Source: a virus. Taken from it: 34,504 nt of DNA. The first letter of the stretch is position 1. The number at the start of each line of letters is the position of its first letter. This document shows, piece after piece, positions 5,100 to 33,190 of the stretch. Below the pieces are notes generated by a model that was given only the letters and a program-made list of their open reading frames with translations, was not told the DNA's origin and made no database searches. The stretch is taken from positions 1 to 34,504 of IMG/VR virus record IMGVR_UViG_3300027297_000001; one strand, 5' to 3'. Both the position numbers and the translations under genes were made by a program.

Positions 5100-6029
5100 T
5101 CACAGCACCGCCAACGCGCCGATGATCGCCAACGCAACCCACGCCAGCGGCGGAACCGAAGCCAATCCGCTGCCGGGAACGCCGGGCGCGATCACCGAAT
5201 TGCCGGGCGCGGGAGTCGTGCCGCTCGAGGCGGCGGCCGCTTGCTGCGCTTCCGCCGCTTGCTGTTCGGCGATGGCCGCGTATTGCGCCTGCCAGTACAG
5301 CACCATCGCGTACAGAATCACGCTCATTTCGCAGTTACTATTGCAGTACGGGGAATCGTTGATAGACGTTCCCCCGCTGGGAATCGATCCCGGACCGGAC
5401 GCCGTTCCCGATGCCCCGCCTTGCTGCATGAACGTTTCGTACACCTGCAACAGCGCGGCTTGCGCCGTCGCCGGCGTCATTTGCCCGCCCTGGACGGCCT
5501 GTGCGATCAGCGAAAACGAATTGTTTACCGCCGGAAGCGCGGCGCATCCGAAACTCAGGTCGCGTTTCACGGCGGCCGCATGGTGAGCGAAAATCAATTC
5601 GATCACGGCAAAGATCGCGCCGATCCCCATCGTCACCGCGCCGGCGATCGCCGCCGTGGACGCCGCGATTACGGACGTCGAGGCGAGGATCCCGATTCCA
5701 GCCGAGGATGTGCCGAGCGCGAGGCCGCTGGCCGTCTGAAAAAGATTTACGTTCGATGGAGCGGTGCCGCAGGAAGGCGAATACCATCCCACATTGAATT
5801 GCCCGGCCGAAATTTGGTTTTCCGCCTCGGTGAGCCAGGATTGATCCCCGAAATCTTTCGGATTCAGGTGCGCGCCGGCATAGGCCGTGATGGCTTGCTG
5901 CATCGCCGCCTGCGCCGTGAGCGAGGCGGTCTGGCCAAGCATGCCGAGGCCGCGCAGCCTGCGTATGCCACGCAAGTTGGGATGCAGCCCCGAAGTGTTC
6001 GCGGTTCGTAGCATCGCGTACGCCATCAT
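5100..6029 (-). CDS. Multi-pass membrane protein (309 aa) with MAYA...NTSGLHPNLRG leader-like N-terminus
   Basis: The start MMAYAMLRTANTSGLHPNLRGIRRLRGLG forms an ATGA overlap with the stop of the protease gene (6026-6029). There are several hydrophobic segments (GIGILASTSVIAASTAAIAGAVTMGIGAIFAVIELIF; C-terminal PPLAWVALAIIGALAVL). The 130-codon upstream extension of the track ORF is rejected. Confidence 0.7.
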   Translation of the reverse strand: MMAYAMLRTANTSGLHPNLRGIRRLRGLGMLGQTASLTAQAAMQQAITAYAGAHLNPKDFGDQSWLTEAENQISAGQFNVGWYSPSCGTAPSNVNLFQTASGLALGTSSAGIGILASTSVIAASTAAIAGAVTMGIGAIFAVIELIFAHHAAAVKRDLSFGCAALPAVNNSFSLIAQAVQGGQMTPATAQAALLQVYETFMQQGGASGTASGPGSIPSGGTSINDSPYCNSNCEMSVILYAMVLYWQAQYAAIAEQQAAEAQQAAAASSGTTPAPGNSVIAPGVPGSGLASVPPLAWVALAIIGALAVL

Positions 6030-6832
6030 GCCGCCGCCATCCACAGCAAAGCGCCAAGCAAAATCACGCCGAAGATTTCCATTTCCTGCGTTGCGGCCGG
6101 AGTGGCCGCGGTCGATGGATTCAACAGCGTTGCGCCGCCCGGCCCCTGCGCGCCCGTATTCGCCGCCTGGACCAGTTGCCCGCCCACGGCCGTCAATCCC
6201 TGGCCGGCAATTTCCAAGCCGCTTGCCACCTGGCCGAGTCCGCGCACGCCGCGGCGCGCATAGCCGGCCATTCCCGCATCGCTCGAATAATCTCCGTGCG
6301 AATCGTCGATCAGGCTCCACCATTTGCGCCGATAGAAATGCGCCGGCGCCACTCCAAACACGGCGCCGGGCCGGGCCGCATCCAGCGGATACCACTGGCC
6401 ATCCTGAAAAACTTCGCAATAGACGTGGGAAAAAGAATCGGGCGCGTTCGGATCGCAGGCGATGGTGACGAGCCGCGTTTCGTAACCGATGGTGCCGAGC
6501 AAGGCGGGAAGGACGTTCGCATTGATATCGTCGCAGTCACCGGCATGCAACTGTAAAAGTTCCCGCGTGGGCCGCAGGGCTTCTTTCATCACCGGATCGT
6601 TCACGAAATAAAACGAATGCGCGAAATCGTAGATCGCGTGAATTTGTCCCCATGCATCGTACGGCGCGACGCCGGCGTTGCGGACGATATCGATCGCTGT
6701 GCGGTTGACGAACGGATCTTTCCAAGCATCGTCGACGAGGCGGCGCAAAAGTGAAATCGTTTGCGCCGTTCCATCGTCGCCGCCGGCAAGCGGGACGGAA
6801 TAAATCAGGCCAGGGGTCGCGTGGATTGCCAC
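6026..6832 (-). CDS. Transglutaminase-like cysteine protease domain protein with C-terminal TM anchor (268 aa)
   Basis: Cys-His-Asp core pattern of the transglutaminase-like superfamily: HAGDCDDINANVLPALLGTIGYETRLV ... FSHVYCEVFQDGQWYPLDAA. The C-terminal hydrophobic helix is MEIFGVILLGALLWMAAA. The start is GTG (6830-6832) and is the first gene after the divergent control region. Confidence 0.75.
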   Translation of the reverse strand: MAIHATPGLIYSVPLAGGDDGTAQTISLLRRLVDDAWKDPFVNRTAIDIVRNAGVAPYDAWGQIHAIYDFAHSFYFVNDPVMKEALRPTRELLQLHAGDCDDINANVLPALLGTIGYETRLVTIACDPNAPDSFSHVYCEVFQDGQWYPLDAARPGAVFGVAPAHFYRRKWWSLIDDSHGDYSSDAGMAGYARRGVRGLGQVASGLEIAGQGLTAVGGQLVQAANTGAQGPGGATLLNPSTAATPAATQEMEIFGVILLGALLWMAAA

Positions 6833-8534: not shown

Positions 8535-8575
8535 GGGGAGCGAAAGTCCCCGGCAAGGGGAGCTTTCGCGGTAAG
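8535..8575 (+). promoter_or_regulatory. Nested-hairpin RNA motif B, copy 1
   Basis: ggggaGCGAAAG-TCCCC-GGCAA-GGGGA-g-CTTTCGC-GGTAA. It lies in the 5' leader of the helicase gene, 26 nt before ATG 8601. Confidence 0.6.
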
Positions 8576-8600
8576 ACTCGATCGCCTGGCAGCCTGGCAA

Positions 8601-10058
8601 ATGACAAAACCTAATTCAGAAATTGCGCAGACGCTTCCCCATAACATCGAAGCGGAGCGCGCCATCCTCGGCGGCATTATGATCCACAATCCGGCTCTCG
8701 AAAGCGTGGCCGACAAACTTACGCCGGATGCTTTCTTCCACGTCAATCACAAAAAAATCTACGACGCCATCCTCGCCTTGCACGAAGACGAATTGCCGAT
8801 GGACGAAATTCATGTGATCGAATGGCTGTCCCAGGCCCGCACGCTCGAGATCGCGGGCGGCGCGGGATATATTTCCGCGCTGCTCGATGGCCGCCCCATC
8901 ATCAACAATCTTTCCAACTATGCGGACATCGTGGCCGGCAAAGCGCGCCTGCGAAAGCTGATCCGGGAAACGGAATTCGTCCAGAAGCGCGCCCTCGAGG
9001 GATGGGCCAATGTGGACGATCTGGAAACTCAGTTTCGCAGCGCGATTGAACTGACGGAACCAGGCGGAAACGGGAACGGCAACGGCCACAAGATCAGCTA
9101 CTCCACCACGGAGTTCCTGCAAAAAGACTGGCCCGAGCCGGAATATCTCGTCCAGGGTTTGCTTGCGCGTAATTCGCCTTCGATGATCGTGGCCATGCCG
9201 CACAGCCTGAAAAGTTTTTTCACCATCGGCCTTGCCTATTCGTGCTCCGTGGCCACGGAGAAAGCCCTCGGGCGATTGATGGTGCCAAAGGCGTTTCGGA
9301 CGATGCTCGTCCAGGTGGAAGAGTCCGGTGCGGAAATGAAAAAGCGGATCCGCGATTTCCTGGCCACGAAACAATTCCTGGATGTGGATCCCGACAATGT
9401 GCGGATCGTCCCACGCGAGGAATTTCCGCGCGAGGGCTTCACGGCAAAGTGGGCAAAGAAAGTGGTGACGGAAGCGCTGGAATTTAAGGCCGATCTGATC
9501 GTGTTCGATGTCTTGCGGCGCCTCTTCGTCGGCCACGGCGATATGAACGGCCCGCAGGACTCCGCTACCTTCCTCGAAATGATCGATGCCGTGCGCGACG
9601 TCACCGGAGCGAATACGCTGCTCGTCCATCACAAAAACAAGAAAGACGCCGAGATGATGTACTCCGCGGCCGGCAGCATCAATTTCTCGGGATGGGCCAA
9701 AACCTTCATCGAATTTAAAAATAAGAAAATCCTGCCGAACAACGTTTCCACGGTGGAAATCGAAACCGATACAGCCTACGGAGTTTCCGCCGACCCGATG
9801 CGCATGGTTCTCGATTTAACTTCCATCATGCCGTTGCGCCTTGAGGCGATCGAGGACGGCGACGATCTGGCCGAGGCCCTGCAACAGATGGACACGGAGT
9901 GGAACATCCGCACGCTGATGGAAGTGTTGGGCATTCCCCGCTCGAGCGCGCAGCGCCGCATCCGGGGATGGGAAAAAACCGGCGCGATCCATAAAGTATC
10001 CGGCGGCAAAAAAGGCCGCGGCGGTTTGGCGGTCTACACAAAAGGACTTGGCGAATGA
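8601..10058 (+). CDS. Replicative helicase-like protein: DnaB N-terminal domain + RecA/RepA-like P-loop domain + C-terminal HTH (485 aa)
   Basis: The N-terminus LPHNIEAERAILGGIMIHNPALESV...HKKIYDAILAL is the characteristic DnaB N-domain signature. The central part has Walker-B-like DLIVFDVLRRLF and a Walker-A position reading AMPHSLKS. The C-terminus is IRTLMEVLGIPRSSAQRRIRGWEKTGAIHKV. Confidence 0.8.
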   Translation: MTKPNSEIAQTLPHNIEAERAILGGIMIHNPALESVADKLTPDAFFHVNHKKIYDAILALHEDELPMDEIHVIEWLSQARTLEIAGGAGYISALLDGRPIINNLSNYADIVAGKARLRKLIRETEFVQKRALEGWANVDDLETQFRSAIELTEPGGNGNGNGHKISYSTTEFLQKDWPEPEYLVQGLLARNSPSMIVAMPHSLKSFFTIGLAYSCSVATEKALGRLMVPKAFRTMLVQVEESGAEMKKRIRDFLATKQFLDVDPDNVRIVPREEFPREGFTAKWAKKVVTEALEFKADLIVFDVLRRLFVGHGDMNGPQDSATFLEMIDAVRDVTGANTLLVHHKNKKDAEMMYSAAGSINFSGWAKTFIEFKNKKILPNNVSTVEIETDTAYGVSADPMRMVLDLTSIMPLRLEAIEDGDDLAEALQQMDTEWNIRTLMEVLGIPRSSAQRRIRGWEKTGAIHKVSGGKKGRGGLAVYTKGLGE

Positions 10059-10060
10059 CT

Positions 10061-10279
10061 CTAACTTTTACTCGCGGCCAACTCTCTCTTCAACATTTCT
10101 GCACGAAGTAGCTTTTTCGCGACATCGCGCAGTTCGTTCCCAAAAACTTTCTTCAATTGATCGCCATCGCTTGATGAAAAACTAATCCTTAAAACATAGT
10201 GGGTCTGACGGTAAACTTTGTCCGTTCCAGGATGGTTTGCTCGCCATCTTTGTTGGTAGATCGTCGCTGGTTTCACCAT
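10061..10279 (-). CDS. Small AT-rich-gene protein (72 aa), possible ribbon-helix-helix-type regulator
   Basis: ATG 10277-10279 behind SD GAGGAG with 7-nt spacing. This is the only minus-strand gene inside the plus arm and faces away from the iteron field. The segment VLRISFSSSDGDQLKKVFGNELRDVAKKLLRAEMLKRE is compatible with strand-helix-helix, but the functional call is weak. Confidence 0.5.
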   Translation of the reverse strand: MVKPATIYQQRWRANHPGTDKVYRQTHYVLRISFSSSDGDQLKKVFGNELRDVAKKLLRAEMLKRELAASKS

Positions 10280-10319
10280 CAATTTTCTCCTCTGTCGAAT
10301 ATATCACACGCTTAAAATT

Positions 10320-10639
10320 AAATGCCCACGGTGGGCATTTGGTATGTAACTTTTCTACCCATCGATTTTCTGTCTATTTCATCATTGCCCTGGAGAAAGG
10401 GGGCGAAAGCGGGCATTTGAGGCTTAAACCGAATACTCTCTATAGTTTCCAAATGCCCATTTAAATGCCCACTCCCTAGGGGGATATCGAACGATTCCTA
10501 ACCTAAAGCAAATGAACACAATAGCTTCCAAATGCCCACTCACCCCCTAAAAAGTGGGCATTTAATGGGCATTTAAATGGGCATTTAGGATGTCCTGTGT
10601 TTTGTACATACTAAGCCTGTTTTCGGGCCTAAATGCCCA
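10320..10639. repeat. Iteron field: 10 copies of AAATGCCCA/TGGGCATTT in both orientations (putative origin and/or operator array)
   Basis: Forward copies start at 10320, 10451, 10463, 10530 and 10631. Reverse copies are at 10332-10340, 10411-10418 (1 mismatch), 10555-10563, 10566-10574 and 10578-10586. Spacing inside the tandem sets is 12 nt. Palindromic pairs are at 10320-10340 and 10530-10563. The region is visibly AT-rich and non-coding. Confidence 0.8.
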
Positions 10640-10667
10640 TTTTCTCTCCCTCTCCCGGACCCCCTGA

Positions 10668-10700
10668 GTGACAAAATTTGTCACTGACAAAATTTGTCAC
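10668..10700. promoter_or_regulatory. Two tandem TGACA-N5-TGTCA palindromes (operator-like)
   Basis: gTGACAaaattTGTCAc at 10668-10684 is followed immediately by TGACAaaattTGTCAc at 10685-10700. Confidence 0.6.
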
Positions 10701-10780
10701 TTTTCGAATAGGCTCTGTGGAGAGCGCAGTTTACTTCCATTTTCTTTCTTTCTTTTTATCTCTCCACTCATACAATACTC

Positions 10781-10809
10781 TTGACAAAACTCATACATGT
10801 ATGATATTC
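10781..10809 (+). promoter_or_regulatory. Sigma70-like promoter candidate for the mini-gene operon, overlapped by a 12-nt palindrome
   Basis: TTGACA (10781-10786), 16-17 nt spacer, GATATT/ATATTC. The perfect palindrome CATACATGTATG (10792-10803) sits in the spacer. Confidence 0.45.
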
Positions 10810-10828
10810 TCTCTCCAGTGAATGAGTA

Positions 10829-11321: not shown

Positions 11322-11355
11322 GGGGAGCGCACATAGAGTGCGCGGTGAATAAAAA
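11322..11355 (+). promoter_or_regulatory. Hairpin motif A, copy 1 (SD-like tract + GCGCAC-AUAGA-GUGCGC + A-rich spacer + AUG)
   Basis: GGGGA-GCGCAC(11327-11332)-ATAGA-GTGCGC(11338-11343)-GGTGAATAAAAA-ATG(11356). Confidence 0.6.
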
Positions 11356-11637
11356 ATGAAAGCGACGATGGAGAGCACGAACAAGCTGGTGATCATCAAC
11401 GGGATAAACTTTCGCGTCTGGCAAGGCGTGTCCGAACAGGGAACGAAATTCGTGGCGCTCGTGAACCGTCTGGCCGCGGGGACTCCCGACGATCAGACGA
11501 AAATCGTTGCGGAGCTCGCGAAGCAACAGGATCACGCCCCGATCGATCCCGCGCTGGCACCTGCGCTCAAAACGCTCGATCCGTCGATCGATCCGGGAAT
11601 CGTAGAGCCGCCGGCAAAAGAAACGCCTGCCGCGTAG
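11356..11637 (+). CDS. Hypothetical protein (93 aa)
   Basis: ATG 11356 after hairpin A. Normal composition with a Pro/Asp-rich C-terminus. Confidence 0.6.
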   Translation: MKATMESTNKLVIINGINFRVWQGVSEQGTKFVALVNRLAAGTPDDQTKIVAELAKQQDHAPIDPALAPALKTLDPSIDPGIVEPPAKETPAA

Positions 11638-11680
11638 GGAGAGAGCGAAAGTCCCCGATGAGGGGAGTGTCCGCGGTGAA
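11637..11680 (+). promoter_or_regulatory. Nested-hairpin RNA motif B, copy 2 (outer stem degenerate)
   Basis: gggagagaGCGAAAG-TCCCC-GATGA-GGGGA-gtgtCCGC-GGTGA. It ends 2 nt before ATG 11682. Confidence 0.5.
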
Positions 11681-11681
11681 C

Positions 11682-11894
11682 ATGACGGATGAAGGCCGGC
11701 AAATTCTATATCGCATGAAAGTGCGCTGCTCTGAACAATGGGGGATCGCGCTGGCGGATATGGAACTGGAAAACATTTCGGCCAGTACACCCCTCGGGGC
11801 GATTGCCTGGCACGACGCGATTTTGATTTGCCATCTACTTCGGAGAGGGTTTCAGGCCCCGGAGAAATATCGAAAGCGAGGGTTTCCTAAATGA
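11682..11894 (+). CDS. Hypothetical protein (70 aa)
   Basis: MTDEGRQILYRMKVRCSEQWGIALADMELENI... The start at 11682 is chosen because the ATG at 11658 lies in the loop of motif B. Confidence 0.5.
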   Translation: MTDEGRQILYRMKVRCSEQWGIALADMELENISASTPLGAIAWHDAILICHLLRRGFQAPEKYRKRGFPK

Positions 11895-12963: not shown

Positions 12964-13109
12964 ACAAAGACCAAGAGGAATTCAACAAGACGCGGGAAAA
13001 GCTGTTCAAGCTGGCGGACAAGATGGGCCTGCGGTTGACGTTGACGGTGAAAAACAAATTCCAGGCCGCGCCGCAGCCGCATGCGAAACGGGAGCCGGGA
13101 GAAAACTGA
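12960..13109 (+). CDS. Possible 49-aa basic mini-protein
   Basis: ATGA overlap at 12960-12963. Sequence is MNKDQEEFNKTREKLFKLADKMGLRLTLTVKNKFQAAPQPHAKREPGEN. Confidence 0.45.
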   Translation: MNKDQEEFNKTREKLFKLADKMGLRLTLTVKNKFQAAPQPHAKREPGEN

Positions 13110-13873
13110 TGCCGATCATCGAAGAACGCTGGAAAGAAATTCAAAATCTGTCGTTGAAATTCGGCGGTCATAAACCGGATTCTCAATTTTGCGTGATGGA
13201 AGCCGCCGCCTACATCGCAGGTGAATCGTGGTCCGATCACCCTGTATGCGTGCCTCGGACCATCGCCGCGGTGTTGCGGCGATGGAATGACGCGCTTCCC
13301 TCGGATCGAGATCGTGATCGTCTATTGAAGCCGTTTCTTCCGCGCATTATTGGCTTACACGCTGACGCGAAAACGGAAATGCGCCGTGCGGTGATGTGCG
13401 GCGATTTCGCGCTTCGTTTCGTGATACCGGAATATTTGCGTTACGCCAAGAAAAAGGGACTTGCGGAAGAACTGGCCGCGACTTCGGAATCGACTACGCA
13501 AGCTGAACTTAAAATTGCAGCAAAATCAGTTCGAAATAAATTGCGCGCCATCGCCAGCGCCATCGACATCGCCAGCGCCAGCGACATCGCCATCGACATC
13601 GCCAGCGCCAGCGCCATCGCCATCGACATCGACATCGCCAGCGCCAGCGACATCGCCATCGCCATCGCCATCGCCAGCGCCATCGACATCGCCAGCGCCA
13701 GCGACATCGCCATCGCCAGCGCCATCGCCAGCGCCATCGCCAGCGCCATCGACATCGCCATCGCCAGCGCCAGCGCCATCGCCATCGCCAGCGCCAGCGC
13801 CATCGCCATTAATCAGAAACTAGAAGTAGCGAAATTGGCGCTCGTAGAGCGCATGATTTCGTGTGCGGAGTGA
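13109..13873 (+). CDS. Protein with a Cys-containing N-terminal domain and an 88-aa (Ala/Asp)-(Ile/Ser) dipeptide-repeat region (254 aa)
   Basis: TGATG overlap at 13107-13111. The N-terminal domain reads FCVMEAAAYIAGESWSDHPVCVPRTIAAVLRRWNDALPSDRDRDRLLKPFLPRIIG. The repeat is AIASAIDIASASDIAIDI... The frame continues into a unique C-terminus NQKLEVAKLALVERMISCAE. Confidence 0.7.
   Translation: MPIIEERWKEIQNLSLKFGGHKPDSQFCVMEAAAYIAGESWSDHPVCVPRTIAAVLRRWNDALPSDRDRDRLLKPFLPRIIGLHADAKTEMRRAVMCGDFALRFVIPEYLRYAKKKGLAEELAATSESTTQAELKIAAKSVRNKLRAIASAIDIASASDIAIDIASASAIAIDIDIASASDIAIAIAIASAIDIASASDIAIASAIASAIASAIDIAIASASAIAIASASAIAINQKLEVAKLALVERMISCAE
13547..13810 (+). repeat. 44 tandem hexanucleotide units built from only three unit types (GCCATC, GCCAGC, GACATC)
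   Basis: Read directly: 264 nt of strict 6-nt periodicity. All six frames are open across it, which explains track ORFs 13441..13809 (-) and 13461..13823 (+). Confidence 0.9.
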
Positions 13874-16100
13874 ATTTGTGATTTTACTCGGATGGGAAAT
13901 CGGAACGGGAAAGCGCGTGGAAATCCCGGACACCGGGCATCTGGCGTGGTTTGGCCAGACGCAGCTATCCGGGAAAACTACGGCGCTCGAGGCCATCGCC
14001 TATCGTGGGGAACTGACGGCCGTCGCGTTCATCACGAAACAGGGCGAGGGGGGATTCCTCACCGGGCGGATGATCCCCCCTTATTTCTCCGAACCGACGA
14101 ACGACGAAGAGCAACCGCTCTGGCGATGGGTGAAATCCATCCTCGAGGCTTCGCAACAGCGCAAAATGAATTTCGAGGAATCCTGGATCATCCGCGCCTG
14201 CGAGGATCCGCGCCTCGCGCAAACCCTGGCCGACGTGCATTCCAACATCAAGGCTTTGCTGGGCGGCGAGGGCGGCTACATCGAAAAAGGCCGCGGCAAG
14301 AAAAAGAAGCGCGAATGGAAATATTCCCGCAAACCAGTGTCCGGGATGAATGCCGGCATTTACACCAGCTTGAAAGCGTACTTCGATATCGTGATGCCCC
14401 AGCTGGCCCGCCTGCCTTACACCAAGAGACTGAAACTTTTCCCCGGCCTGAACGTGATGGACCTGCGCGAATACGCCACGGAGACGCAGGCGCTCGTGAT
14501 CCGTTCGGTGATGGAGTGGGTGTATCAGCACGAAAAGAACGTGCGCGTGATCGTCCCCGAATCGCAGGACTTCGTGCCGCAGGGAAAAAACTCCCCGGTA
14601 AAGATGGCCTGCGAGAACCTGGTGCGCAAGGCCGGGGCCAATAAAAATTTCATGTGGCTGGATTCGCAGGATATGGCCGCGGTGGACAAGATCATGCTGC
14701 GAGCCTGCTCGATCGTGGGCTGCGGCGTGCAAACCGAGGGGCACGAAATTGACCGCACGCTCGCGAGCATGTTTTCGCCCCAGCTAAAACCGATTGACAT
14801 TGCCCGGCTGCGCATCGGCGAATTCTTCGTGCGCACGCCGGAAGCGCGCGTTTCGAAAGTGTACGTGCAACCGGCCTGGATGGATAGCGAGCTCCACGCG
14901 CAGGCCATCGCCCGCGGCGAGGAAACCGTCGCCAGCGCGCGGCAGATGTTGCGTGCGTTTAAAGATTCAAGGAAACCCGGTCCGTCGTCCCCCCAACTGT
15001 TGCAAATTCAGGAGGAATCCGATGCCGAATGTGAGCGAAGTGCAGACGTTGAATCAGGGGCCGAAATATCAAAGTCAAGCGCGGAGGTTTCAAAGGATGA
15101 TCGAACTTCCAAGCGTCTACACCACGTCGACTCAGACGATGATTCTGGAACTGAAATTCGCCCCGAAGTTGACGATGGAAATCGAATTCACGAAGGGCGA
15201 AGCGTTCGAACTTCTGCGAGCGATCGCGGATGTGCCCCGAACGATGGAAATAATGAGGAAAACGACGGTTTACCACGGAAACAAGAAGCCCAAAAAACAA
15301 AAAATCTAAACGAGGAGACGATTCATGAAAAGCCTGGCAGGCAGGAAAGTCAAACCGCATGTGATGTTCAATCCGGTGCCGTTCGCGGATCAAGTGCTGG
15401 CGCGGAAGGATTGGACGATCGCGAAAAAGAGGGAAGTGATTCTATTCCAGGTGTTCGGGATCTCTCCCCGGAAAGTGAGGACGCAATGCCGGAAACCGCA
15501 GCCCAAAAAGTAGAGCGGCAACTGGACGATAACGTAATTCCCACGTTGGGCACGCTGCGCGAGCTTTTGAAAGATCACGCGGCGCTGATTGAAGCCCACG
15601 ACGCGCTGGCCGCGCGCGCGAGCGAACGGATGGTCACGGCATTGACCGAAGGTTACGAGGGAAACCTATCCCGATCAGCCGAAGCCATGACAAAACATCG
15701 GGAAAGCCAGTCCGCGCCGTCCGGCAACGGCCTTTCGCTCACCGTCCCGCAGTTGGACTACATCTACAAATACACCGTGGCGAAGGCGGCGAAGGCTCCC
15801 GGCATTCTGGAATTGCTCACCACGAAACCGGAACTGCGCGTGACCGTGCAACGGCAAACGGTGGAAATGGACGATTCCACGATCGTCGGACGGATCGCGC
15901 GGCTTCTCCACGAAGGATATTTCAAGAGTCCCAAAAACGTGCCCGCGCTGCAAAAGGAATTAAAGCGCCGCGGCTGCGATCAGCCCACCACGAACATTTA
16001 TAAGCCGATCAACAAACTGGCCGAGATGGGTTTTCTGACCGTGGAGGCCGAAGGCTACCAGGAAGTCCCGGAAATGAAAGTGTCCATTGTGAAAGCGTGA
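13863..16100 (+). CDS. HerA/FtsK-like P-loop NTPase + long acidic low-complexity linker + C-terminal winged helix (745 aa); candidate genome-packaging/translocating ATPase
   Basis: Walker A is HLAWFGQTQLSGKTTALEAI. Walker-B-like is NVRVIVPESQDFVP. FMWLDSQDMAAVDKIMLRACSIVGCGVQTEGHEIDRTL resembles the HerA/FtsK sensor region. The linker is acidic and Ser-rich, roughly residues 380-570. The C-terminus is GRIARLLHEGYFKSPKNVPALQKELKRRG...INKLAEMGFLTVEAEGY. The start is GTG (13863 or 13878). Confidence 0.65.
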   Translation: MRSEFVILLGWEIGTGKRVEIPDTGHLAWFGQTQLSGKTTALEAIAYRGELTAVAFITKQGEGGFLTGRMIPPYFSEPTNDEEQPLWRWVKSILEASQQRKMNFEESWIIRACEDPRLAQTLADVHSNIKALLGGEGGYIEKGRGKKKKREWKYSRKPVSGMNAGIYTSLKAYFDIVMPQLARLPYTKRLKLFPGLNVMDLREYATETQALVIRSVMEWVYQHEKNVRVIVPESQDFVPQGKNSPVKMACENLVRKAGANKNFMWLDSQDMAAVDKIMLRACSIVGCGVQTEGHEIDRTLASMFSPQLKPIDIARLRIGEFFVRTPEARVSKVYVQPAWMDSELHAQAIARGEETVASARQMLRAFKDSRKPGPSSPQLLQIQEESDAECERSADVESGAEISKSSAEVSKDDRTSKRLHHVDSDDDSGTEIRPEVDDGNRIHEGRSVRTSASDRGCAPNDGNNEENDGLPRKQEAQKTKNLNEETIHEKPGRQESQTACDVQSGAVRGSSAGAEGLDDREKEGSDSIPGVRDLSPESEDAMPETAAQKVERQLDDNVIPTLGTLRELLKDHAALIEAHDALAARASERMVTALTEGYEGNLSRSAEAMTKHRESQSAPSGNGLSLTVPQLDYIYKYTVAKAAKAPGILELLTTKPELRVTVQRQTVEMDDSTIVGRIARLLHEGYFKSPKNVPALQKELKRRGCDQPTTNIYKPINKLAEMGFLTVEAEGYQEVPEMKVSIVKA

Positions 16101-16291: not shown

Positions 16292-16472
16292 GCATTTTCC
16301 AAAATCGACGATCAGCGCGACGGGCTGGTGCCGGAAGTGCAACCGCAACACCGAACACCAGGTGGACGACGGCCGTCTCGGGCGCTGCCTGGACCCGGAG
16401 CATCCCGCGCCCTCGTCGCGCGCGGCAGATGCGCCGAAGCCGGCCGAACAGAAAGGCTTGTTCGAAAAATGA
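16278..16472 (+). CDS. Hypothetical CxxC mini-protein (64 aa)
   Basis: ATG 16278. Sequence ...ATGWCRKCNRNTEHQVDDGRLGRCLDPEH... Confidence 0.5.
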   Translation: MPVSEHFPKSTISATGWCRKCNRNTEHQVDDGRLGRCLDPEHPAPSSRAADAPKPAEQKGLFEK

Positions 16473-16813
16473 GCAAGAAAACCCGCAGCGGAGCGAAGGG
16501 CGGACGGAAAGTAGGGAAGAGAAGCAGGGCCAAACTGGCTTCTCATTCTGAGCTGGGGCCGTCCGTCCCTCCCTCCGCTGCGCATTCGCAAGACGGGTAT
16601 ACCGTTGACGCGGCCGAAGCGATTATTACGGCACTCACGCTCGAGCGCCAAAAGCTGCTTTATGCCTTGCGCGGGACGCTTCATTTCTATGATCGTGTGG
16701 CTGGCAACGTAAAAACCGATCATGGCTGGATGGCGAAAGATGTTCTCTACTTGAAAGAAATCCGCATGTTGGCATGGGGTCGCGAAGAGGGAGAAAGCAA
16801 AAGTCCCCGGTAA
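16469..16813 (+). CDS. Hypothetical basic-N-terminus protein (114 aa)
   Basis: ATGA overlap at 16469-16472. Sequence starts MSKKTRSGAKGGRKVGKRSRAKL. Its TAA stop (16811-16813) is the loop of motif B copy 3. Confidence 0.55.
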   Translation: MSKKTRSGAKGGRKVGKRSRAKLASHSELGPSVPPSAAHSQDGYTVDAAEAIITALTLERQKLLYALRGTLHFYDRVAGNVKTDHGWMAKDVLYLKEIRMLAWGREEGESKSPR

Positions 16814-16826
16814 GGGGAGCTTTTGC
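16788..16826 (+). promoter_or_regulatory. Nested-hairpin RNA motif B, copy 3
   Basis: agggagaaaGCAAAAG(16797-16803)-TCCCC-GGTAA-GGGGA-g-CTTTTGC(16820-16826). The outer-stem change G:C->A:T is compensatory. Confidence 0.6.
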
Positions 16827-16827
16827 G

Positions 16828-17205
16828 ATGAAAATGCTCCTGGAATGCATTTTGATCAGCGCGTCCCTTTGCCGCGCCATCCATTCGCGGCCGATCGTGG
16901 CCCTCGGGGCGGGCCAGGCCGTCGCGCTTCTGGCCGATGGCGATCTGACGCGCCGAAATATCAAACAGGGCGGGATGGAAGTGGATCCGCTGGCGCGCGT
17001 TTTCATCGGCGCGCATCCCACCTGGCCGCGCATGGTTCCGATGGGCATTGTCCAGACGGCCGCGGGGATGTGGCTTGCGCAAAAAATGAAATCCAGCCGG
17101 CATGCGTGGCTGCGGCGCTGGTGGTGGCTGCCCCAAACCGCGGGGATCGCCGGAAACGCGCAGGGATTTATTTACAGCTACGTCCACTGGAAGCGAGGTT
17201 TCTAA
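16828..17205 (+). CDS. Small integral membrane protein (125 aa)
   Basis: MKMLLECILISASLCRAI... has further hydrophobic segments and a Trp-rich tail. The alternative in-frame ATG at 16834 fits the 'motif B + 2 nt + ATG' spacing seen at two other copies. Confidence 0.6.
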   Translation: MKMLLECILISASLCRAIHSRPIVALGAGQAVALLADGDLTRRNIKQGGMEVDPLARVFIGAHPTWPRMVPMGIVQTAAGMWLAQKMKSSRHAWLRRWWWLPQTAGIAGNAQGFIYSYVHWKRGF

Positions 17206-17660: not shown

Positions 17661-18897
17661 ATGCGTGTGGCTCTTTCCCCCATCCATATCCTCTCGCTTT
17701 GCTCCGGGACGGGCATGCTCGATGAAGGACTTTGCCTCGGGCTTCCGGGATCCCGCGTTGTGGGTTACGTCGAGCAGGAAGCCTTCTGCGCGGCGATTCT
17801 CCTGGCCCGGATGGCGGACGAGGCTCTGGTTCCGGCACCTGTCTGGTGCGGAAACCTTGAGGACTTCCCCGGCGCCGGATGGCGCGGAAGCGTGGACGGA
17901 ATCACTGCGGGCTTCCCGTGCCAGCCATGGAGCCAGTCCGGGAAACGGCTCGGCGCCGCGGATGAGCGATGGATCTGGCCCGCCATCGTGGGAATTGCTC
18001 GCGATGTGGGACCGGATTTCCTCTTCCTGGAAAACGTGCCTGGCCTTGTTTCCTCAGACGGACTGGCCCGAGTTCTCGGCGACCTTGCCGGACTCTGGTT
18101 CGATGCGGAATGGATTTCTATCCGAGCGTCCGATGTGGGAGCCGCCCACCAGCGAAAGCGAATTTTTATTTTGGCCGTCCGCCCGGGGCGAGGATTCGGA
18201 ATCCTGCGGGAATCATCCGAGGAATGGCTCGGCGCATTCGGGGGATTCGCTGACCAGAGTGGCGCGCAACTGGCCAACGGTTTACGGCCAGGGAGCGGGA
18301 AATTCCGGGCCGGACGGGAACGAATTTTCGACGATGGCGCGCGAGTGGCAGACGCCGGCGGCGGACAGTTCCCGATCGAGGGGCCTCGATCGCCGGAACG
18401 AAATGGGCCTGGATCAGCAAGCGAGATTCTGGCCGACGCCGACCGAGGACAACGTAAACAATCAGGGCGGCCCGAGCCGGAGCCGCGAGGGAGCGTTCGC
18501 GGATTTGACCGTAGCGGTACAACGCTGGCCCACGGCCGGGGCGAACGATCACAAGGGATCGGCGAAGGAAGGCCAGAGGCGGGGCCAATTGGACGAAGCG
18601 GCAGTGCATTTATTTTCGCCCCCCGGTCCCGCTGATCCCGTCTGGCGAGACATTCTCTGCCGAAGCCCGTATCTCGCCCCCGCGATTGCCGCTGGCAGTG
18701 TCCGTGTCTGGTGGGACGACGCGAACCGATCTTTCATCACGCAAACGCCTGAATCCTTGCTTTGCGGCGTGGCTGATGGGCATGCCCTGGTGGTGGACGA
18801 ATCCCGCGCCGATCAGCTTCGCGCGATTGGAAATGGAGTCGTGGCGCTGCAGGCTGCGGTCGCGTTTAGAATTCTTGCTCGCCGATTCCGTAAATGA
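17661..18897 (+). pseudogene. DNA (cytosine-5) methyltransferase with a broken reading frame (+1 shift needed at 18162-18174)
   Basis: The frame of ATG 17661 carries motif I LSLCSGTGMLD, motif IV GFPCQPWS, motif VI ENVPGL and motif VIII QRKRIFILA, then turns into Arg/Gly-rich read-through up to 18635. The +1 frame from about 18166 carries repeated (F/N/R)WPT-type target-recognition repeats (FWPSARGED, NWPTVYGQG, EWQTPAADS, FWPTPTEDN, RWPTAGAND) and motif X RAIGNGVVALQA, ending at 18897. Confidence 0.8.
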
Positions 18898-20273
18898 ATA
18901 ATGCCGACATCGAATTGATCCAGGCCAATGCCCGGGCCCTACCCCTCGGGGATCACTCCGTCCAGTGCATCGTCACTTCGCCGCCCTATTGGGGCCTGCG
19001 CAAATACTCCGGCGAACAGGAATTTATTTGGGGCGGCGATCTCAGTTGCGAACATCGTTTCTTGGTTTGGTCACTCATGCCCGTCGATCGCGATCGAAAA
19101 GAAAGTGGATGTCGCTGCGGGGCCTGGCGCGGCGCTTACGGGATGGAGCCGGCCATCGAAATGTACGTTCAGCACACGGTGGAAATTCTGCGCGAACTTC
19201 GCCGCGTCCTGCGGCCCGATGGCGTGCTGTTCTGGAATATCGGCGATAGCTATCACAACGGCGACAAAGGCGGCTACCGCAAAAGCAGGCTCGGCCTGCG
19301 ATCCGAAATGCAGAAATCGAACATGGGCGGCGATATCCCCGGCGCTCCGAACCGGAATCCGCAACCAGGTTTAAAACCGAAAGATTTATGCCTGATCCCG
19401 GAGCGCGTGGCCATCGCCGCGCAGGCGGATGGCTGGTGGATTCGCTCCATCATCGTGTGGGCCAAGCCCAATCCCATGCCGGAATCCTGCCAGGACCGTC
19501 CCACGGACGCTTACGAACACATTTTGATGCTCACGAAATCGGAACATTATTTTTGGGACGCGGACGCCGTGCGCGAACCGGCCGTCCAGGGCGATAGAGT
19601 CCGCAGCGACGTTATCGGCGGGAATCGAAGTTCAATCCTACAGCACTCGCCTAGCGGAAAATTTACGCAAGGGTACGATGAATTCGGGTACGCACCGAAG
19701 GGAACGCACTCGCGCGGCAAAGGCGATGGAGGGCCGAAAGCCCGGGCCCGGGCGACTGAGGATAATTTTCGCGATTGGGCCGATTCGACGCGGGACGTGC
19801 TCGGCTATCGAAATATTCGCAACGTGTGGATGTTCGCCACGCAGCCGTTCGCCGGCGCGCACTTCGCCACGTTTCCAGAGGAATTGCCGCGGCGTTGCAT
19901 CCTGGCGGCGACGTCCGCCAAAGGCGCGTGCGCGCAGTGCGGCGCGCCGTGGGAGCGCGTCACGCGATCGAAGTTTTACGGCAACTGGAATCCCGGCCCG
20001 GGCAGCAACGGTCCGATGAAAGTAAACGCGCAGTGGGAACCGCCAGAAACAATCGGCTGGACGCCCACTTGCCGCTGCCCGGGGCAACGCGGGAAAACGG
20101 TTCCCTGCGTGGTGCTCGATCCCTTCGCGGGGAGCGGGACTACCGGCCGCGTGGCCAGGAGCCTTCGCCGGCGCGCGATCCTTGCCGATGTGGCCTACGG
20201 TGCCGGGGACGAATACCGGAAACTCGCGCTCGATCGCATTCGCGGCGTGGATGTGGAACTTCCGTTCTTATGA
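18894..20273 (+). CDS. N4-cytosine/N6-adenine DNA methyltransferase, beta-class motif order (459 aa)
   Basis: The catalytic motif IVTSPPYW is near the N-terminus and the AdoMet motif VVLDPFAGSGTTGRVA is near the C-terminus. Also present: IIVWAKPNPMPES and HFATFPEELPRRCI. The start forms an ATGA-type overlap with the C5-MTase stop. Confidence 0.85.
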   Translation: MNNADIELIQANARALPLGDHSVQCIVTSPPYWGLRKYSGEQEFIWGGDLSCEHRFLVWSLMPVDRDRKESGCRCGAWRGAYGMEPAIEMYVQHTVEILRELRRVLRPDGVLFWNIGDSYHNGDKGGYRKSRLGLRSEMQKSNMGGDIPGAPNRNPQPGLKPKDLCLIPERVAIAAQADGWWIRSIIVWAKPNPMPESCQDRPTDAYEHILMLTKSEHYFWDADAVREPAVQGDRVRSDVIGGNRSSILQHSPSGKFTQGYDEFGYAPKGTHSRGKGDGGPKARARATEDNFRDWADSTRDVLGYRNIRNVWMFATQPFAGAHFATFPEELPRRCILAATSAKGACAQCGAPWERVTRSKFYGNWNPGPGSNGPMKVNAQWEPPETIGWTPTCRCPGQRGKTVPCVVLDPFAGSGTTGRVARSLRRRAILADVAYGAGDEYRKLALDRIRGVDVELPFL

Positions 20274-21309: not shown

Positions 21310-21615
21310 CTACCACGGGTTTTTCCTCGGGGCGCTGCATTCCAGTTGATCGGCTAGTTCGTCGAACTTGCCGAGGGCCTTCGTCAATTCCTCGAAATTC
21401 TCGGCGCTGATTTCTATTTCCTTGCCGAGCGTGATCCCGTTCTCCCGGAAGGCGCCGGGATAAAACAAGGCGGGCTTCGCCTGCATTTCCGCCGCCTTGC
21501 TGATGGCGCTGGCCATCGCCATCATCGGATCGCGCCCGGGATCTGGCGCGGGAACCGGAATCGGATCAGGCAGGCGCGAGGCTTGGATCGTGATTTTCAA
21601 CTGGTAGTTTGCCAT
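21310..21615 (-). CDS. Hypothetical protein (101 aa)
   Basis: ATG 21613-21615 directly after hairpin A copy 2. Sequence starts MANYQLKITIQASRLPDPIPVPAPDPGRDP. Confidence 0.6.
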   Translation of the reverse strand: MANYQLKITIQASRLPDPIPVPAPDPGRDPMMAMASAISKAAEMQAKPALFYPGAFRENGITLGKEIEISAENFEELTKALGKFDELADQLECSAPRKNPW

Positions 21616-21650
21616 CGTTTTATTTGCGCACTCTATGTGCGCTATCTCCC
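21616..21650 (-). promoter_or_regulatory. Hairpin motif A, copy 2
   Basis: In gene sense: AGAGGGAGATA-GCGCAC-ATAGA-GTGCGC-AAATAAAACG-ATG. The hairpin is at 21626-21642. Confidence 0.6.
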
Positions 21651-25876: not shown

Positions 25877-26167
25877 TCACCGCTTCCTGTCGAGCACCGT
25901 ATCGCCAGGATATATCACACTTTCATCGTTTACGTGCCGGTGGGGCGGGAAATCCCGCATGGTCTGATTCATGCGATCGAGGGTATTGTCCAGCTTGTCG
26001 ATCACGTCGGAAAGATGCTGGACCTGCCCCGCTTCCTCTTGCTGGTGCAATTCGACGGCCTGGATGCGGTAGTCGAATTTGTACCAGCTTCCCACGAGGG
26101 CCACGAGAATAAAAACGAGTTTCAGCCATTCCGAGGAAATCGCTTTTTTCAGATCGTCAAAGGTCAT
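25877..26167 (-). CDS. Single-TM protein (96 aa)
   Basis: MTFDDLKKAISSEWLKLVFILVALVGSWYKF is followed by a coiled segment. Confidence 0.55.
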   Translation of the reverse strand: MTFDDLKKAISSEWLKLVFILVALVGSWYKFDYRIQAVELHQQEEAGQVQHLSDVIDKLDNTLDRMNQTMRDFPPHRHVNDESVIYPGDTVLDRKR

Positions 26168-27362: not shown

Positions 27363-27559
27363 TTTCCTTCCCTTTCGCGAGATTTGAGAAGTTCCATCAG
27401 CATTTCCGCTGTTGGGACTTGATACTCTTTACCATGATTCTTGCAGATTGCAATTGAGCAAATCGCGTACCGCTGGCCGTCGCTGCCCCGCTTCATTCGC
27501 AGCGGCCGGTTGCATTCCGGGCAGTACAGAAAAAACGTGACTCGCGCAGCATGACTCAC
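27359..27559 (-). CDS. Zinc-ribbon mini-protein (66 aa)
   Basis: GTG start. Sequence ...FFLYCPECNRPLRMKRGSDGQRYAICSIAICKNHGKEY. Confidence 0.5.
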   Translation of the reverse strand: MSHAARVTFFLYCPECNRPLRMKRGSDGQRYAICSIAICKNHGKEYQVPTAEMLMELLKSREREGK

Positions 27560-27571
27560 GGATCGTCAGAA

Positions 27572-30610: not shown

Positions 30611-30654
30611 GGACCTGACCTTTCGGCCGCCGCGGCGGCCCCTTCCCTTCCCTA

Positions 30655-30700
30655 TTACCGCGAAAGCGCCTCTTACCGAGGCTTTCCGCTCAAAATCTCC
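30655..30700 (-). promoter_or_regulatory. Nested-hairpin RNA motif B, copy 5 (inner stem fully covaried)
   Basis: In gene sense: gggagattttgaGCGgAAAG-CCTC-GGTAA-GAGG-cg-CTTTCGC-GGTAA. It starts right after the stop at 30701-30703 and lies 44 nt before ATG 30610. Confidence 0.6.
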
Positions 30701-31876
30701 CTACTGATAGTTCACCGTGAAATCGATCGAGGCGCTGCTCGCCTTCACGCAAATTCCATTCAGAAAAAGATTGTCGTAAATCTCGGGCGGCGGTGTCGTT
30801 GTGGCGATCGAGGTGATCACCGAAACCACGTTCGTCGCCGGCGTGCCTGTGCAGCTTCCCGGCGCGAGATCGAATAGCGTGATCGTGCCCGCGGCTGGCG
30901 TGCCGATCACCACGGAGTGCACGGTTCCCGGGCCGGGTTTGATTTCCGTCGCCGTCGTGCTCGCCAAATGCGAATAGCTGTTCGGCATCTGGAAGCCTGG
31001 CGGCAGGAAAATATAGTCCATCGTGAAGACGTTTGCATTCGCCCCACCAGCGGTGTAAACGATCAGCACGTTCACGCATGGAAGAGGCGGGACATCGAAA
31101 AATTGAGCGCCCGCGCTCGTGGACGGCGTGAAGGTAAGATTGGTGGGATTGACATTCGTCGACGGAGAGCACTCCACAACGATCGTCGAACCGGACGGCC
31201 CCGAACCGCCCACATAGGCAAACGAAATATAGCCGTACGCGCTTCCCAAAGGGGTTTGCGAAACCCCGGAAACCACGCTCACGCCAGCCGGCGCGTTCGC
31301 TGCAATCACTTTATCCAGTTGCGCGACTTGATAGGCGCCCACGGTTTGCACTGGCTCGGCCTGCGAACCTGAATAACTGAGTAAAAAAGTTCCGGTGTTG
31401 GGAACGCAGGTGATCTGAACTTCCACAGTGGGGAAATATCCCGATGCCGTGACTGCCGCATTCGATCCTACGCCAGCCTGGCCTTGCGTTGCGGTATCCG
31501 AAATCAGGTACGTTGTCCCGCTGCTATCCACGCCATAAATTGCCATCGCCATCGAAGCCACGCCAGCCGTCTTCGCGTAGGCGTGATGCTGCGTTTGGTT
31601 GCGATTGTTTACGGGAAAGGTTTGCGTCGATCCCGTGCAAGCTGTCCCTGCGGGCGCTAATGTTTGCTGGACTGGAACGATGCTTACCGGCGTCTGCGCC
31701 ATCGCGGGACGCGCGGCAAATCCCGCAAGAGCGAACAGAAGGACGAGCGAGCCGCCCAGCTTCGCGAGCCGTTTCTTTAGCGAGGGAATGAAGGCGCGCG
31801 GCGTCTTCCGGTTGCGCAGGGCCTTTTTGATTCCCTGAATTTGCTTGTCTTTCGGGATGTTCATTCTTCGCTTCAT
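30701..31876 (-). CDS. Signal-peptide-bearing beta-rich protein (391 aa)
   Basis: A basic N-terminus is followed by LGGSLVLLFALAGFAARPAMAQ (AxA-type cleavage context). The remainder is Thr/Ser/Gly/Val-rich and beta-like. Confidence 0.65.
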   Translation of the reverse strand: MKRRMNIPKDKQIQGIKKALRNRKTPRAFIPSLKKRLAKLGGSLVLLFALAGFAARPAMAQTPVSIVPVQQTLAPAGTACTGSTQTFPVNNRNQTQHHAYAKTAGVASMAMAIYGVDSSGTTYLISDTATQGQAGVGSNAAVTASGYFPTVEVQITCVPNTGTFLLSYSGSQAEPVQTVGAYQVAQLDKVIAANAPAGVSVVSGVSQTPLGSAYGYISFAYVGGSGPSGSTIVVECSPSTNVNPTNLTFTPSTSAGAQFFDVPPLPCVNVLIVYTAGGANANVFTMDYIFLPPGFQMPNSYSHLASTTATEIKPGPGTVHSVVIGTPAAGTITLFDLAPGSCTGTPATNVVSVITSIATTTPPPEIYDNLFLNGICVKASSASIDFTVNYQ

Positions 31877-31878
31877 TT

Positions 31879-31920
31879 TTACCGCGAAAGCTTCCCTTAC
31901 CGGGGACTTCCGCTCTCTCC
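31879..31920 (-). promoter_or_regulatory. Nested-hairpin RNA motif B, copy 4
   Basis: In gene sense: ggagagaGCGGAAG-TCCCC-GGTAA-GGGAA-g-CTTTCGC-GGTAA, then AA, then ATG (31876). Confidence 0.6.
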
Positions 31921-32648: not shown

Positions 32649-33152
32649 TTAGCTTCTCCACCAGGCCGAATAGCCGAAGAGGCTCACGCTCACGGTGTTC
32701 GGATTCGCGCCGTCGAGATTTTGGATCCGGCAATTCACGGGCGAACCGTTGGCGATGAAGTGCGGAATTTTCAGCAAGCCAGGTTCCTTGCCGTTCGTCG
32801 TGAAGAGAACCTGATCCACGCCGTATTTTCCCCACTTGTACCCGAGCAAATCTTCGTAGATGAGCGCGCGAAAGGAACCGGATGCCGCGGCAAGGCCGGA
32901 CGTGGCATGCGCCAGAATCGCGACCAGCCAGAAATCCTCTTGGATGGTGACGCGCGCGAGGTCGGTTTCTCCGGCGGTCAAAATCAGCGGTTGAAACGCG
33001 TACCAGTAGAGATGCGCGCCGGCGAGCGAGAGCCGAACCCATTGCGGCGGAACCCATCCCGACGAAACGAGTTTTCTGCGATTCTGCCAGGCCCCGAGCG
33101 TGGGAGACATTCTCGCGCCGGGTACATGGCCTTGCGTCCAGGGGTTAATCAT
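32649..33152 (-). CDS. Small beta-rich capsid-like protein (167 aa), paralog of 33217..33825
   Basis: ATG 33150-33152 directly after hairpin A copy 3. Sequence EDFWLVAILAHATS...LFTTNGKEPGLLKIPHFIANGSPVNCRIQNLDGANPNTVSVSLFGY. Confidence 0.6.
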   Translation of the reverse strand: MINPWTQGHVPGARMSPTLGAWQNRRKLVSSGWVPPQWVRLSLAGAHLYWYAFQPLILTAGETDLARVTIQEDFWLVAILAHATSGLAAASGSFRALIYEDLLGYKWGKYGVDQVLFTTNGKEPGLLKIPHFIANGSPVNCRIQNLDGANPNTVSVSLFGYSAWWRS

Positions 33153-33190
33153 TTTATTTCGCGCACTCCATGTGCGCAATTCCTTTCCTC
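33153..33190 (-). promoter_or_regulatory. Hairpin motif A, copy 3
   Basis: In gene sense: GAGGAAAGGAATT-GCGCAC-ATGGA-GTGCGC-GAAATAAA-ATG. The hairpin is at 33161-33177. Confidence 0.6.

Follow-up and report, generated by a model that had tools for sequence, protein, structure and literature searches.

The 34,504-nt virus record IMGVR_UViG_3300027297_000001 of IMG/VR (hereafter the window, meaning the whole stretch of DNA analysed) raises the question of why one short hairpin recurs at five of its gene junctions. This hairpin element, named F1 here, had been described from the letters of the DNA as a nested RNA motif and interpreted as a boxB-like site or as an operator for a phage RNA-binding regulator. 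Our data supported the description and pointed to another interpretation. F1 is also an interspersed repeat of Acidobacteriota chromosomes, its base pairing is maintained, and it is subject to turnover in the virus family. The overall reading that we prefer, with a probability of about 55%, is that of an Acidobacteriota palindrome similar to repetitive extragenic palindromic (REP) sequences, which would have colonised the cistron junctions of the virus and which may exert an effect there at the RNA level.

The F1 copies and their fold

Exactly five copies were recovered in the window, at the places first reported, both by a profile hidden Markov model (E 1e-11 to 2e-15; runner-up E = 0.3) and by a covariance model built from 36 diverse copies (46.8-61.4 bits; runner-up 12.7 bits), and a repeat finder joined them as direct and inverted repeats (Table 1). 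Once placed in a shared register, all five follow the same plan over a unit of about 47 nt, with outer and inner stems of 7 and 5 bp, a single G bulged out between them on the 3' side, a pentaloop of GGYAA type and a tail reading GGTRA. The nested stems and the bulge proposed by the sequence-only reading were recovered in this register, as were the loops (GGUAA three times, GGCAA and GAUGA) and their GNRA-like pattern, which is written here as G-N-Y-R-A. Every copy lies in the sense of its flanking genes and the downstream genes are those already named, encoding a DnaB-like helicase, a 1012-aa protein, a 391-aa protein and two small proteins. The copies had also been called intergenic without exception, which is correct for all but copy 3; this copy overlaps the last codons of the upstream open reading frame (ORF), and the TAA of its loop (16811-16813) doubles as the stop codon of ORF 16328-16813, as had been noticed.

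Table 1. Coordinates, hairpins and surroundings of the F1 copies and of members of a second hairpin family, H2, in the window (SD, Shine-Dalgarno)
Feature	Coordinates	Strand	Hairpin	Upstream purines	Tail or spacer	Start codon	Score
F1 copy 1	8535..8581	+	8540-8569, GCGAAAG-TCCCC-GGCAA-GGGGA-G-CTTTCGC		tail GGTAAG, 8570-8575		61.4 bits
F1 copy 2	11637..11686	+	11645-11674, loop GATGA	SD-like GGGAGAGA, 11637-11644	spacer GGTGAAC	ATG 11682	46.8 bits
F1 copy 3	16789..16838	+	16797-16826, GCAAAAG/CTTTTGC	SD-like GGGAGAAA, 16789-16796	spacer GATGAAA	ATG 16834	61.4 bits
F1 copy 4	31872..31920	-	31913-31884	SD-like GGAGAGA, 31920-31914	spacer GGTAAAA	ATG 31876, 391-aa gene	59.7 bits
F1 copy 5	30648..30701	-	30689-30660, GCGGAAA-GCCTC-GGTAA-GAGGC-G-CTTTCGC		tail GGTAAT		53 bits
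H2	11327..11343	+	GCGCAC-ATAGA-GTGCGC	GGGGA	12 nt	ATG 11356	z -5.3; 12.7 bits as F1 look-alike
H2	21626..21642	-	GCGCAC-ATAGA-GTGCGC	GAGGGAGA, 2 nt	10 nt	ATG of gene 21310-21615	
H2	33161..33177	-	GCGCAC-ATGGA-GTGCGC	GAGGAAAGGAA, 2 nt	8 nt	ATGATTAAC	

The full nested hairpin is the minimum-energy fold of copy 1, which is identical over more than 36 nt to many host chromosomal copies and is followed 31 nt downstream by the helicase ATG at 8601. The earlier claim that substitutions preserve pairing was upheld by covariation over 129 distinct copies (see below) and, within the window, by the outer stem of copy 3, by the single G.U pair in the outer stem of copy 4 and by the compensated inner stem of copy 5, which in register reads GCCUC/GAGGC and shows two double changes relative to UCCCC/GGGGA. 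It failed at the outer stem of copy 2, whose 3' arm (UGUCCGC) has decayed to three non-Watson-Crick positions and whose minimum-energy structure folds the inner stem only, at one C.A mismatch in the inner stem of copy 4 (GGGAA) and at an A.C at the stem junction of copy 5. The window copies are the most eroded of the whole F1 family, and their folding energies are unremarkable (z -1.3 to -1.5 in four copies) except in copy 3 (z -3.8). The structural evidence for F1 is the covariation across many copies, not the five window copies alone.

Pairing was present in 96.8% of the cells of a 36-sequence seed alignment, in which five pairs had changed on both sides; pair 8-33, for example, was GC in 17 sequences, CG in 14, AU in three and UA in one. 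The larger alignment that had been suggested as a check comprised 129 distinct metagenome copies and did give covariation, with 99% of cells pairing and changes on both sides in 10 of the 12 pairs, although it leans towards structure because it was fitted to the model. None of 500 shuffles of this alignment reached the observed covariation, and slid registers paired at 48.8-64.7%. A metagenome scan in which the inner stem was left as N, so that circularity was avoided for that stem, returned TCCCC/GGGGA 68 times, GCCCC/GGGGC 17 times and TCCTC/GAGGA three times, together with wobble variants. Among non-Watson-Crick positions on the sense strand, G.U outnumbered A.C by about 20 to about 8 (hand tally, p = 0.018), which is modest evidence that the element's own strand is the one that folds.

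Of 150 distinct copies, 142 have GGTAA or GGCAA as their loop and 148 have G as their bulge, a conservation partly produced by the search patterns used. The variants GGTAA, GGCAA, GATGA, GTCAA and GGTGA, closing an inner stem of 5 bp, all fit G-N-Y-R-A, of which only position 3 varies freely (T or C, about 60:40); long-form variants carry an additional nested hairpin in the loop, itself capped by GGCGA, GGTGA or GGCAA. The F1 hairpin is real and its base pairing is maintained. Its consensus can be written (N)GA-GCGAAAG-UCCCC-GGYAA-GGGGA-G-CUUUCGC-GGUAAG-NAAGUC, and three sub-families with a common core were distinguished by outer stem and tail, namely F1 proper (GCGAAAG), F2 (GGCCGAAG) and F3 (CCCAAG). 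Searches of Rfam gave zero matches at gathering thresholds over the whole window and nothing overlapping F1 even at E values up to 10, and no publication on the core sequence was found in a literature search.

F1 in host chromosomes and in related viruses

A scan of one genome per species returned 31 exact F1 matches, nearly all of them in metagenome-assembled genomes (MAGs) of Acidobacteriota, with about 6-7 exact matches per MAG and on contigs of up to 3 Mb, and the covariance model gave 151 matches in 96 metagenome loci. The genes beside the host copies are ordinary cellular ones (AcrB, radical SAM, alcohol dehydrogenase, histidine biosynthesis, ABC transporters), and these copies are therefore regarded as chromosomal rather than as parts of prophages. 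They were found singly, in tandem with a repeat period of about 42-47 nt, and within larger composite repeats. F1 is an interspersed repeat shared with the host, and it is best read as one of a small family of interspersed palindromes of Acidobacteriota, behaving in the manner of REPs or bacterial interspersed mosaic elements (BIMEs). Since it is scattered through the chromosomes of soil Acidobacteriota, it is not a phage-specific element of boxB type. The sharing of F1 also provides a direct sequence link from the virus to a host, Acidobacteriota, probably within 'Ca. Acidiferrales'-like lineages.

One composite repeat of about 150 nt with F1 as its core is frequent in host MAG loci (L045, L053, L043, L056, L030 and L038). 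Its conserved flanks (..GTCATTCTGAGACGAAGTGGCGGCC..F1..GCCGCCACGCAGCGAAGAATCTCTCTGC..) contain a long-range inverted repeat of 8 bp, GTGGCGGC/GCCGCCAC. Two loci labelled as belonging to a Rugosimonospora sp. MAG, L039 and L050, have F1 flanks that are all but identical to those of the Acidobacteria gp2 MAG contigs L049 and L033, with about two differences over about 115 nt in the first pair and one base in the second; both are probably mis-binned Acidobacteriota contigs within an actinobacterial MAG.

A pattern scan of viral contigs detected F1 in several contigs of about 35 kb related to the window, and its position varied by genome when homologues of the window proteins were mapped onto these relatives. 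Orthologous junctions were found empty, or with F1 in sense, in antisense, in its long form or as two elements in tandem. At the w_946/w_363 junction the orientation differs between the relatives L027 and L062, and L066 has no copy within 20 kb. The relative IMGVR 3300044980_000156, with about 96-97% DNA identity to the window along most of its length, lacks copy 4 and has a long form in place of copy 3, precisely where a mosaic segment ends (breakpoint 16588-16816). Its copy 2 is perfect and that of the window has five substitutions over about 31 nt; copy 5 differs between both genomes at 5 of about 31 nt, one compensatory pair being among the differences. Turnover or mobility of F1 in the virus family is well supported by these observations, and the pattern is that of an inserted, exchangeable element rather than of a fixed regulatory site. 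Comparison of filled with empty sites gave a possible AGGGA duplication at copy 5 and no clean target-site duplication at copy 4.

Other differences from the same relative were recorded. The C-terminal two-thirds of the 1012-aa protein (27559-29962) has no DNA match in it and is a swapped module, as would be expected of a receptor-binding protein. About 20 units of a 12/18-nt tandem repeat (CATCGCCAGCGC...) occupy 13476-13851, within ORF 13109-13873, in a segment that is replaced in this relative (alignment gap 13103-13879). The 1012-aa gene starts at ATG 30610, 49 nt downstream of copy 5, and after that copy come a perfect 16-nt palindrome, GGCCGCCGCGGCGGCC (30621-30636, minus strand), which the relative does not have, and a GAAAGG Shine-Dalgarno (SD) sequence. 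A further junction hairpin, GCGACGGAUCGUUCCGUCGC (31938-31957, minus strand), lies where the gene preceding copy 4 ends.

The orientation of F1 was strongly biased in the virus family, in which about 27 of 31 copies are sense (p = 3e-5), and an independent sample of metagenome relatives gave 15 sense copies versus one antisense between co-directional genes (p = 5e-4). In hosts, co-directional pairs gave eight sense and seven antisense copies, with a further six copies in convergent and six in divergent pairs; a smaller genome sample gave roughly 7 sense to 1, and the pooled host figure (about 15 of 23) was not significant. Cumulative GC skew has its minimum near 10-11 kb, in a low-GC non-coding region, and the F1 copies on both sides of it keep one orientation, so that the viral bias follows transcription and not replication; an explanation based on the replication strand was unsupported by the skew. 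The region 10060-10820 is non-coding, has about 51% GC and contains a 35-nt direct repeat (10425-10459 and 10504-10538) and the best sigma-70-like promoter match (10781-10808, TTGACA-16-GATATT). Adjoining the helicase gene, it may be the origin and an early control region.

Start codons, a second hairpin family and rival explanations

In sense copies of F1 the stem begins 0-10 nt past the upstream stop codon, and a start codon follows 7-52 nt beyond the stem. When the tail reaches at least 12 nt, an SD-like purine run usually lies within it, as in GGTAAGGAAGTC-ATG and GGTAAAGGAGAAAGAGACG-ATG. A tail of 7-10 nt leaves no room for such a run. Where the spacer was at most 10 nt, an SD-like motif lay directly 5' of the hairpin in 9 of 13 cases, and where the tail was longer this was so in 3 of 20 (Fisher p = 0.0025), a test that overstates independence because copies of the GGAGA type may share one cassette ancestor; a strict GGAG/GAGG rule retained 8 of the 13 short-spacer junctions (p = 0.008). 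At these junctions 2-6 nt separate GGAG(A) from the hairpin that follows it. The group includes window copies 2, 3 and 4, with the layout GGAG(A), 2-3 nt, 30-nt hairpin, 7 nt and ATG, and the distance from SD to AUG falls from about 40 nt in linear sequence to about 10 nt once the 30-nt hairpin is excluded. Their ATGs (11682, 16834 and 31876) do stand 2 nt past the GGTRA tail, that is 7 nt past the stem, as the sequence-only reading had it. Its conclusion that folding would occlude the initiation region was replaced by the opposite preference, in which the hairpin would be looped out between an upstream SD and the AUG. Such a split ribosome-binding site (RBS) in the virus is given somewhat less than even odds, and for an RNA-level role of F1 in the virus, taken broadly, the odds appear even.

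The mechanism that may be proposed is as follows. F1 would repeatedly enter short gene junctions of these virus-like genomes of about 35 kb and turn over by insertion, loss, replacement and conversion. Being kept almost only in the sense orientation, it would be transcribed within polycistronic mRNA, and its RNA is predicted to fold in vivo into a 12-bp bulged hairpin with a GNRA-like pentaloop cap, an intercistronic structure that presumably leaves the downstream cistron translatable. In one arrangement the purine-rich tail (GGUAAGGAAGUC and similar) would supply or precede the SD. In the other, that of copies 2, 3 and 4, the hairpin stands between GGAG(A), 2-6 nt upstream, and the AUG, 7-10 nt downstream, and folding would restore a workable spacing. 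A likely added effect is that flanking cistrons are shielded from exonucleases or that the stem serves as a processing landmark.

The second hairpin family, H2 (GCGCAC-AYRGA-GTGCGC), has three members in the window and others in relatives, and none was seen in host loci. Its layout is like that of F1, with SD-like purines, the hairpin, 8-13 A-rich nt and ATG, and one compensatory variant (ACGCAC/GTGCGT) was observed. The loop of the H2 at 33161-33177 contains an ATG, yet the conserved start is the next ATG, near 33152, which is likely the true start of ORF 32649-33179. At this gene start (w_32649), the interval from the SD to the same ATGATTAAC holds F1 in L064 and L065, H2 in the window, L066 and L073, and no hairpin in L027 and the near-identical relative. 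The presence of two unrelated hairpins in one slot indicates that this slot at the least tolerates a hairpin well and perhaps favours one. Arrays of GTGAYTNGTGA-type heptamers (GTGATTCGTGGTTCGTGAC, GTGACTAGTGACTGGTGACTGGTGA) also occupy junctions of the virus family (33180-33216 in the window; L063, L064, L065, L073 and L124), sometimes immediately 3' of F1, and they are rich in stop codons in all frames. A more speculative proposal, which we regard as doubtful, is that this uncultured Acidobacteriota virus family routinely builds its RBS as SD, looped-out hairpin and AUG, with F1, captured from the host, and the virus-specific H2 interchangeable in the hairpin slot; the nearly invariant GGYAA loop and the bulged G would in that case offer a docking point to a factor, of the host or of the virus, that tunes translation or decay of many cistrons together, and the junction cassette would be a recombination linker for in-register exchange of modules.

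Several observations weigh against the account of a colonising palindrome with an RNA-level effect. Regarding its REP-like side, neither a GTAG nor a CGTC tag abuts F1 on either strand, the flanks being NGA (5') and GGTAAG (3'). ORFs resembling REP-associated tyrosine transposases (RAYTs, Y1 transposases) were found in three host loci (L128:1543-2198, L138:8087-8682 and L121:2859-3741; tblastn with a YafM query), each bracketed by its own inverted palindromic repeats, which differ from F1, so that several REP-like families seem to coexist in these hosts. Regarding the RNA-level side, the F2 copies of another phage group run antisense to genes, and the conserved loop and bulge are consequently not explicable everywhere by a function of sense RNA. 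Copies equally frequent on antisense strands had been named beforehand as a sign against the RNA motif, and such a distribution was partly encountered, in this group and in hosts without clear strand preference, the host counts being limited by gene calls from a home-made, self-trained codon model. The decay of window copies, with the outer stem of copy 2 left unfolded, argues against strong constraint on every copy. Copies with upstream GGAGA share the extended consensus (T)AGGAGARA-hairpin-GGTAAAA-ATG and may have a single ancestral cassette; the start codon is ambiguous in some cases (L073, L074), ribosomes might be recruited by the A-rich spacer alone, copies 1 and 5 (31 and 49 nt from ATG) are outside the split form, and the host is uncultured.

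An alternative is a purely selfish or neutral mobile palindrome of the host, which would do nothing in the virus and for which the sense bias and the proximity to start codons would only mirror those insertions that are not lethal in a packed genome. Rapid turnover between near-identical genomes, eroded window copies, the empty 20 kb of L066, near-identity to host copies and the lack of clear orientation or context preference among the latter are all compatible with it. It accounts less well for compensatory changes that keep pairing even between close relatives (copy 5), for the excess of G.U over A.C on the sense strand and for the unrelated H2 in the same SD-AUG slot, which suggests that a hairpin is selected there and not just tolerated; we consider it unlikely, though deserving of real weight. 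Alternatively, F1 could act in mRNA processing or stability only, as a landmark for RNase III or RNase E or as a protective stem at 3' or 5' ends setting cistron ratios, in the manner of T7 RNase III sites or E. coli REP stabilisers and with no direct role in initiation. The sense copies at cistron junctions just after a stop codon and the distance of copies 1 and 5 from their ATGs agree with this, as does the report of REPs as RNA elements downstream of coding regions (PMC3733652). Twelve base pairs and a bulge are nevertheless short for RNase III, no U-tract follows the stem in either orientation, and the shift of the SD to a place upstream of the hairpin, exactly at spacers of 7-10 nt, would stay unexplained, which makes a pure processing element rather unlikely.

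A DNA-level signal, be it a dimer operator, a hairpin for single-stranded DNA priming or replication, or a recognition hairpin of an HUH/Y1 transposase, was judged improbable. Enzymes of the IS200/IS605 type recognise bulged imperfect hairpins, a kind to which F1 belongs, RAYT-like ORFs exist in some host loci, host copies are orientation-neutral and the asymmetric features persist whichever way the element lies with respect to genes. These ORFs are flanked by repeat families other than F1, however, the tags are missing, the viral orientation follows transcription and not a putative origin, and a simple dimer operator is hard to reconcile with the asymmetry of loop and bulge. The boxB or nut-like site of the sequence-only reading, or a translational operator for a virus-encoded RNA-binding protein (an N-like antiterminator, or a repressor of coat-protein or RegA type), had these points in its favour: the 5-bp inner stem with a G-N-Y-R-A pentaloop is the pattern of P22 boxB, whose loop is GACAA, every window copy is sense, and the near-invariant loop and bulged G resemble a recognition surface, even though loop conservation is partly an effect of the search pattern. 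It was judged very improbable in view of the F1 copies among host housekeeping genes, the antisense F2, the five sites at cistron junctions instead of one or two in promoter-proximal leaders and the lack of conservation of these sites between close relatives (about 96-97% identity). Moreover, boxA (YGCTCTTWA) has no exact match in the window, its six one-mismatch matches compare with 15 expected, and none is upstream of a copy. No candidate protein was identified, Pfam and PHROGs being silent for nearly all ORFs; among the about 40 ORFs searched (Pfam, PHROGs, partly PDB) no RNA-binding protein, antiterminator, RNA polymerase or transposase was recognised.

Two further candidates were rejected. 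F1 is not a canonical terminator, because no U-tract follows it: its tails read GGTAAG... without a T-run either way, and none of the five copies was among the sense terminator-like sites. Terminator and promoter scans of the window gave results near chance, the terminator total being close to that of shuffles. A promoter for a phage RNA polymerase lacked support, on account of the absence of a recognisable polymerase among the ORFs searched and the presence of F1 in host DNA.

Known systems, genome context and significance

The nearest parallels of F1 are REP-type repeats, as regards its origin, and, for three of the five copies in the window, the split initiation region of phage T4. REPs are plausibly transcribed and active as RNA and are recognised by a GTAG/CGTC tag criterion (PMC3733652). 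Like REPs and BIMEs, F1 is a short imperfect palindrome (about 30-50 nt) with many intergenic copies, arranged as singles, tandem clusters and mosaics with other repeats; its pairing is compensatory, and it is plausibly transcribed and active as RNA. It differs by the missing tag and by the lack of a cognate RAYT found next to its copies, by a modest copy number (roughly 10-20 per genome by our own estimate), by its nested stem, invariant bulged G and GGYAA pentaloop, and by its spread into a virus family, where it shows a strong sense bias. In T4 genes 25 and 38, a hairpin between SD and AUG shortens the spacing, in one case from 22 to 5 nt and in the other from 27 to 11 nt, and experiments have shown that the structure is required for efficient initiation (PMC3014915). 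Folding of F1 is predicted to shorten the corresponding distance in a comparable way, from about 40 to about 10 nt. Unlike in T4, the putative architecture recurs in the window at about six junctions of one genome, involves two hairpin families of which one is a host-type repeat, and is polymorphic among close relatives.

Likenesses to other systems are more partial. F1 has in common with lambda and P22 boxB a 5-bp stem and a pentaloop reducing to GNRA once one base is extruded, but it lacks boxA, is not promoter-proximal, has many copies, resides also in host chromosomes and is embedded in a longer outer stem, and no N-like protein was identified in the window. Repeated oriented motifs in short intergenic gaps upstream of starts are also found in mycobacteriophages, as the start-associated and extended start-associated sequences (SAS/ESAS) of Cluster K and the stoperators of L5. 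These are phage-specific, the stoperators being repressor-bound DNA sites, whereas F1 is a structured palindrome shared with the host. The RNase III sites of T7 are likewise several related hairpins between cistrons of a polycistronic phage mRNA; they are phage-specific and, at about 20 bp with an internal loop, longer than F1, which has 12 bp and a single bulge.

The window begins and ends with a 99-nt direct repeat (1-99 and 34406-34504, 100% identical) and probably represents a complete genome of 34,405 bp that is circular or terminally redundant. It has at least ten relatives of 34-37 kb in IMG/VR and in soil or peat metagenomes. Recognised ORFs were the DnaB-like helicase (8601-10058) and two DNA methyltransferases (17665-18897 and 18894-20273), and weak matches suggested an Rz-like spanin (25877-26167) and a transglutaminase-core protein (6026-6832). 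No capsid, portal, terminase or polymerase was found among the same ORFs, no tRNA or transfer-messenger RNA was found in the window, and cultured phage relatives were limited to distant DnaB matches. The window is an unusually opaque virus-like replicon.

F1 represents a structured repeat family outside Rfam that is common to a poorly studied soil phylum and its viruses, and it shows a host interspersed palindrome entering a viral genome and turning over in it. A practical caution follows for phage-looking regulatory repeats, for which a comparison with host chromosomes ought to precede any appeal to a phage regulator. Among REP-like palindromes, F1 stands out by being common to Acidobacteriota and a virus family and by its recurrent placement between SD and AUG. 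If the split RBS is true, what was a curiosity of two T4 genes would become a recurrent design principle, for which filled, empty and swapped natural alleles exist in this virus family.

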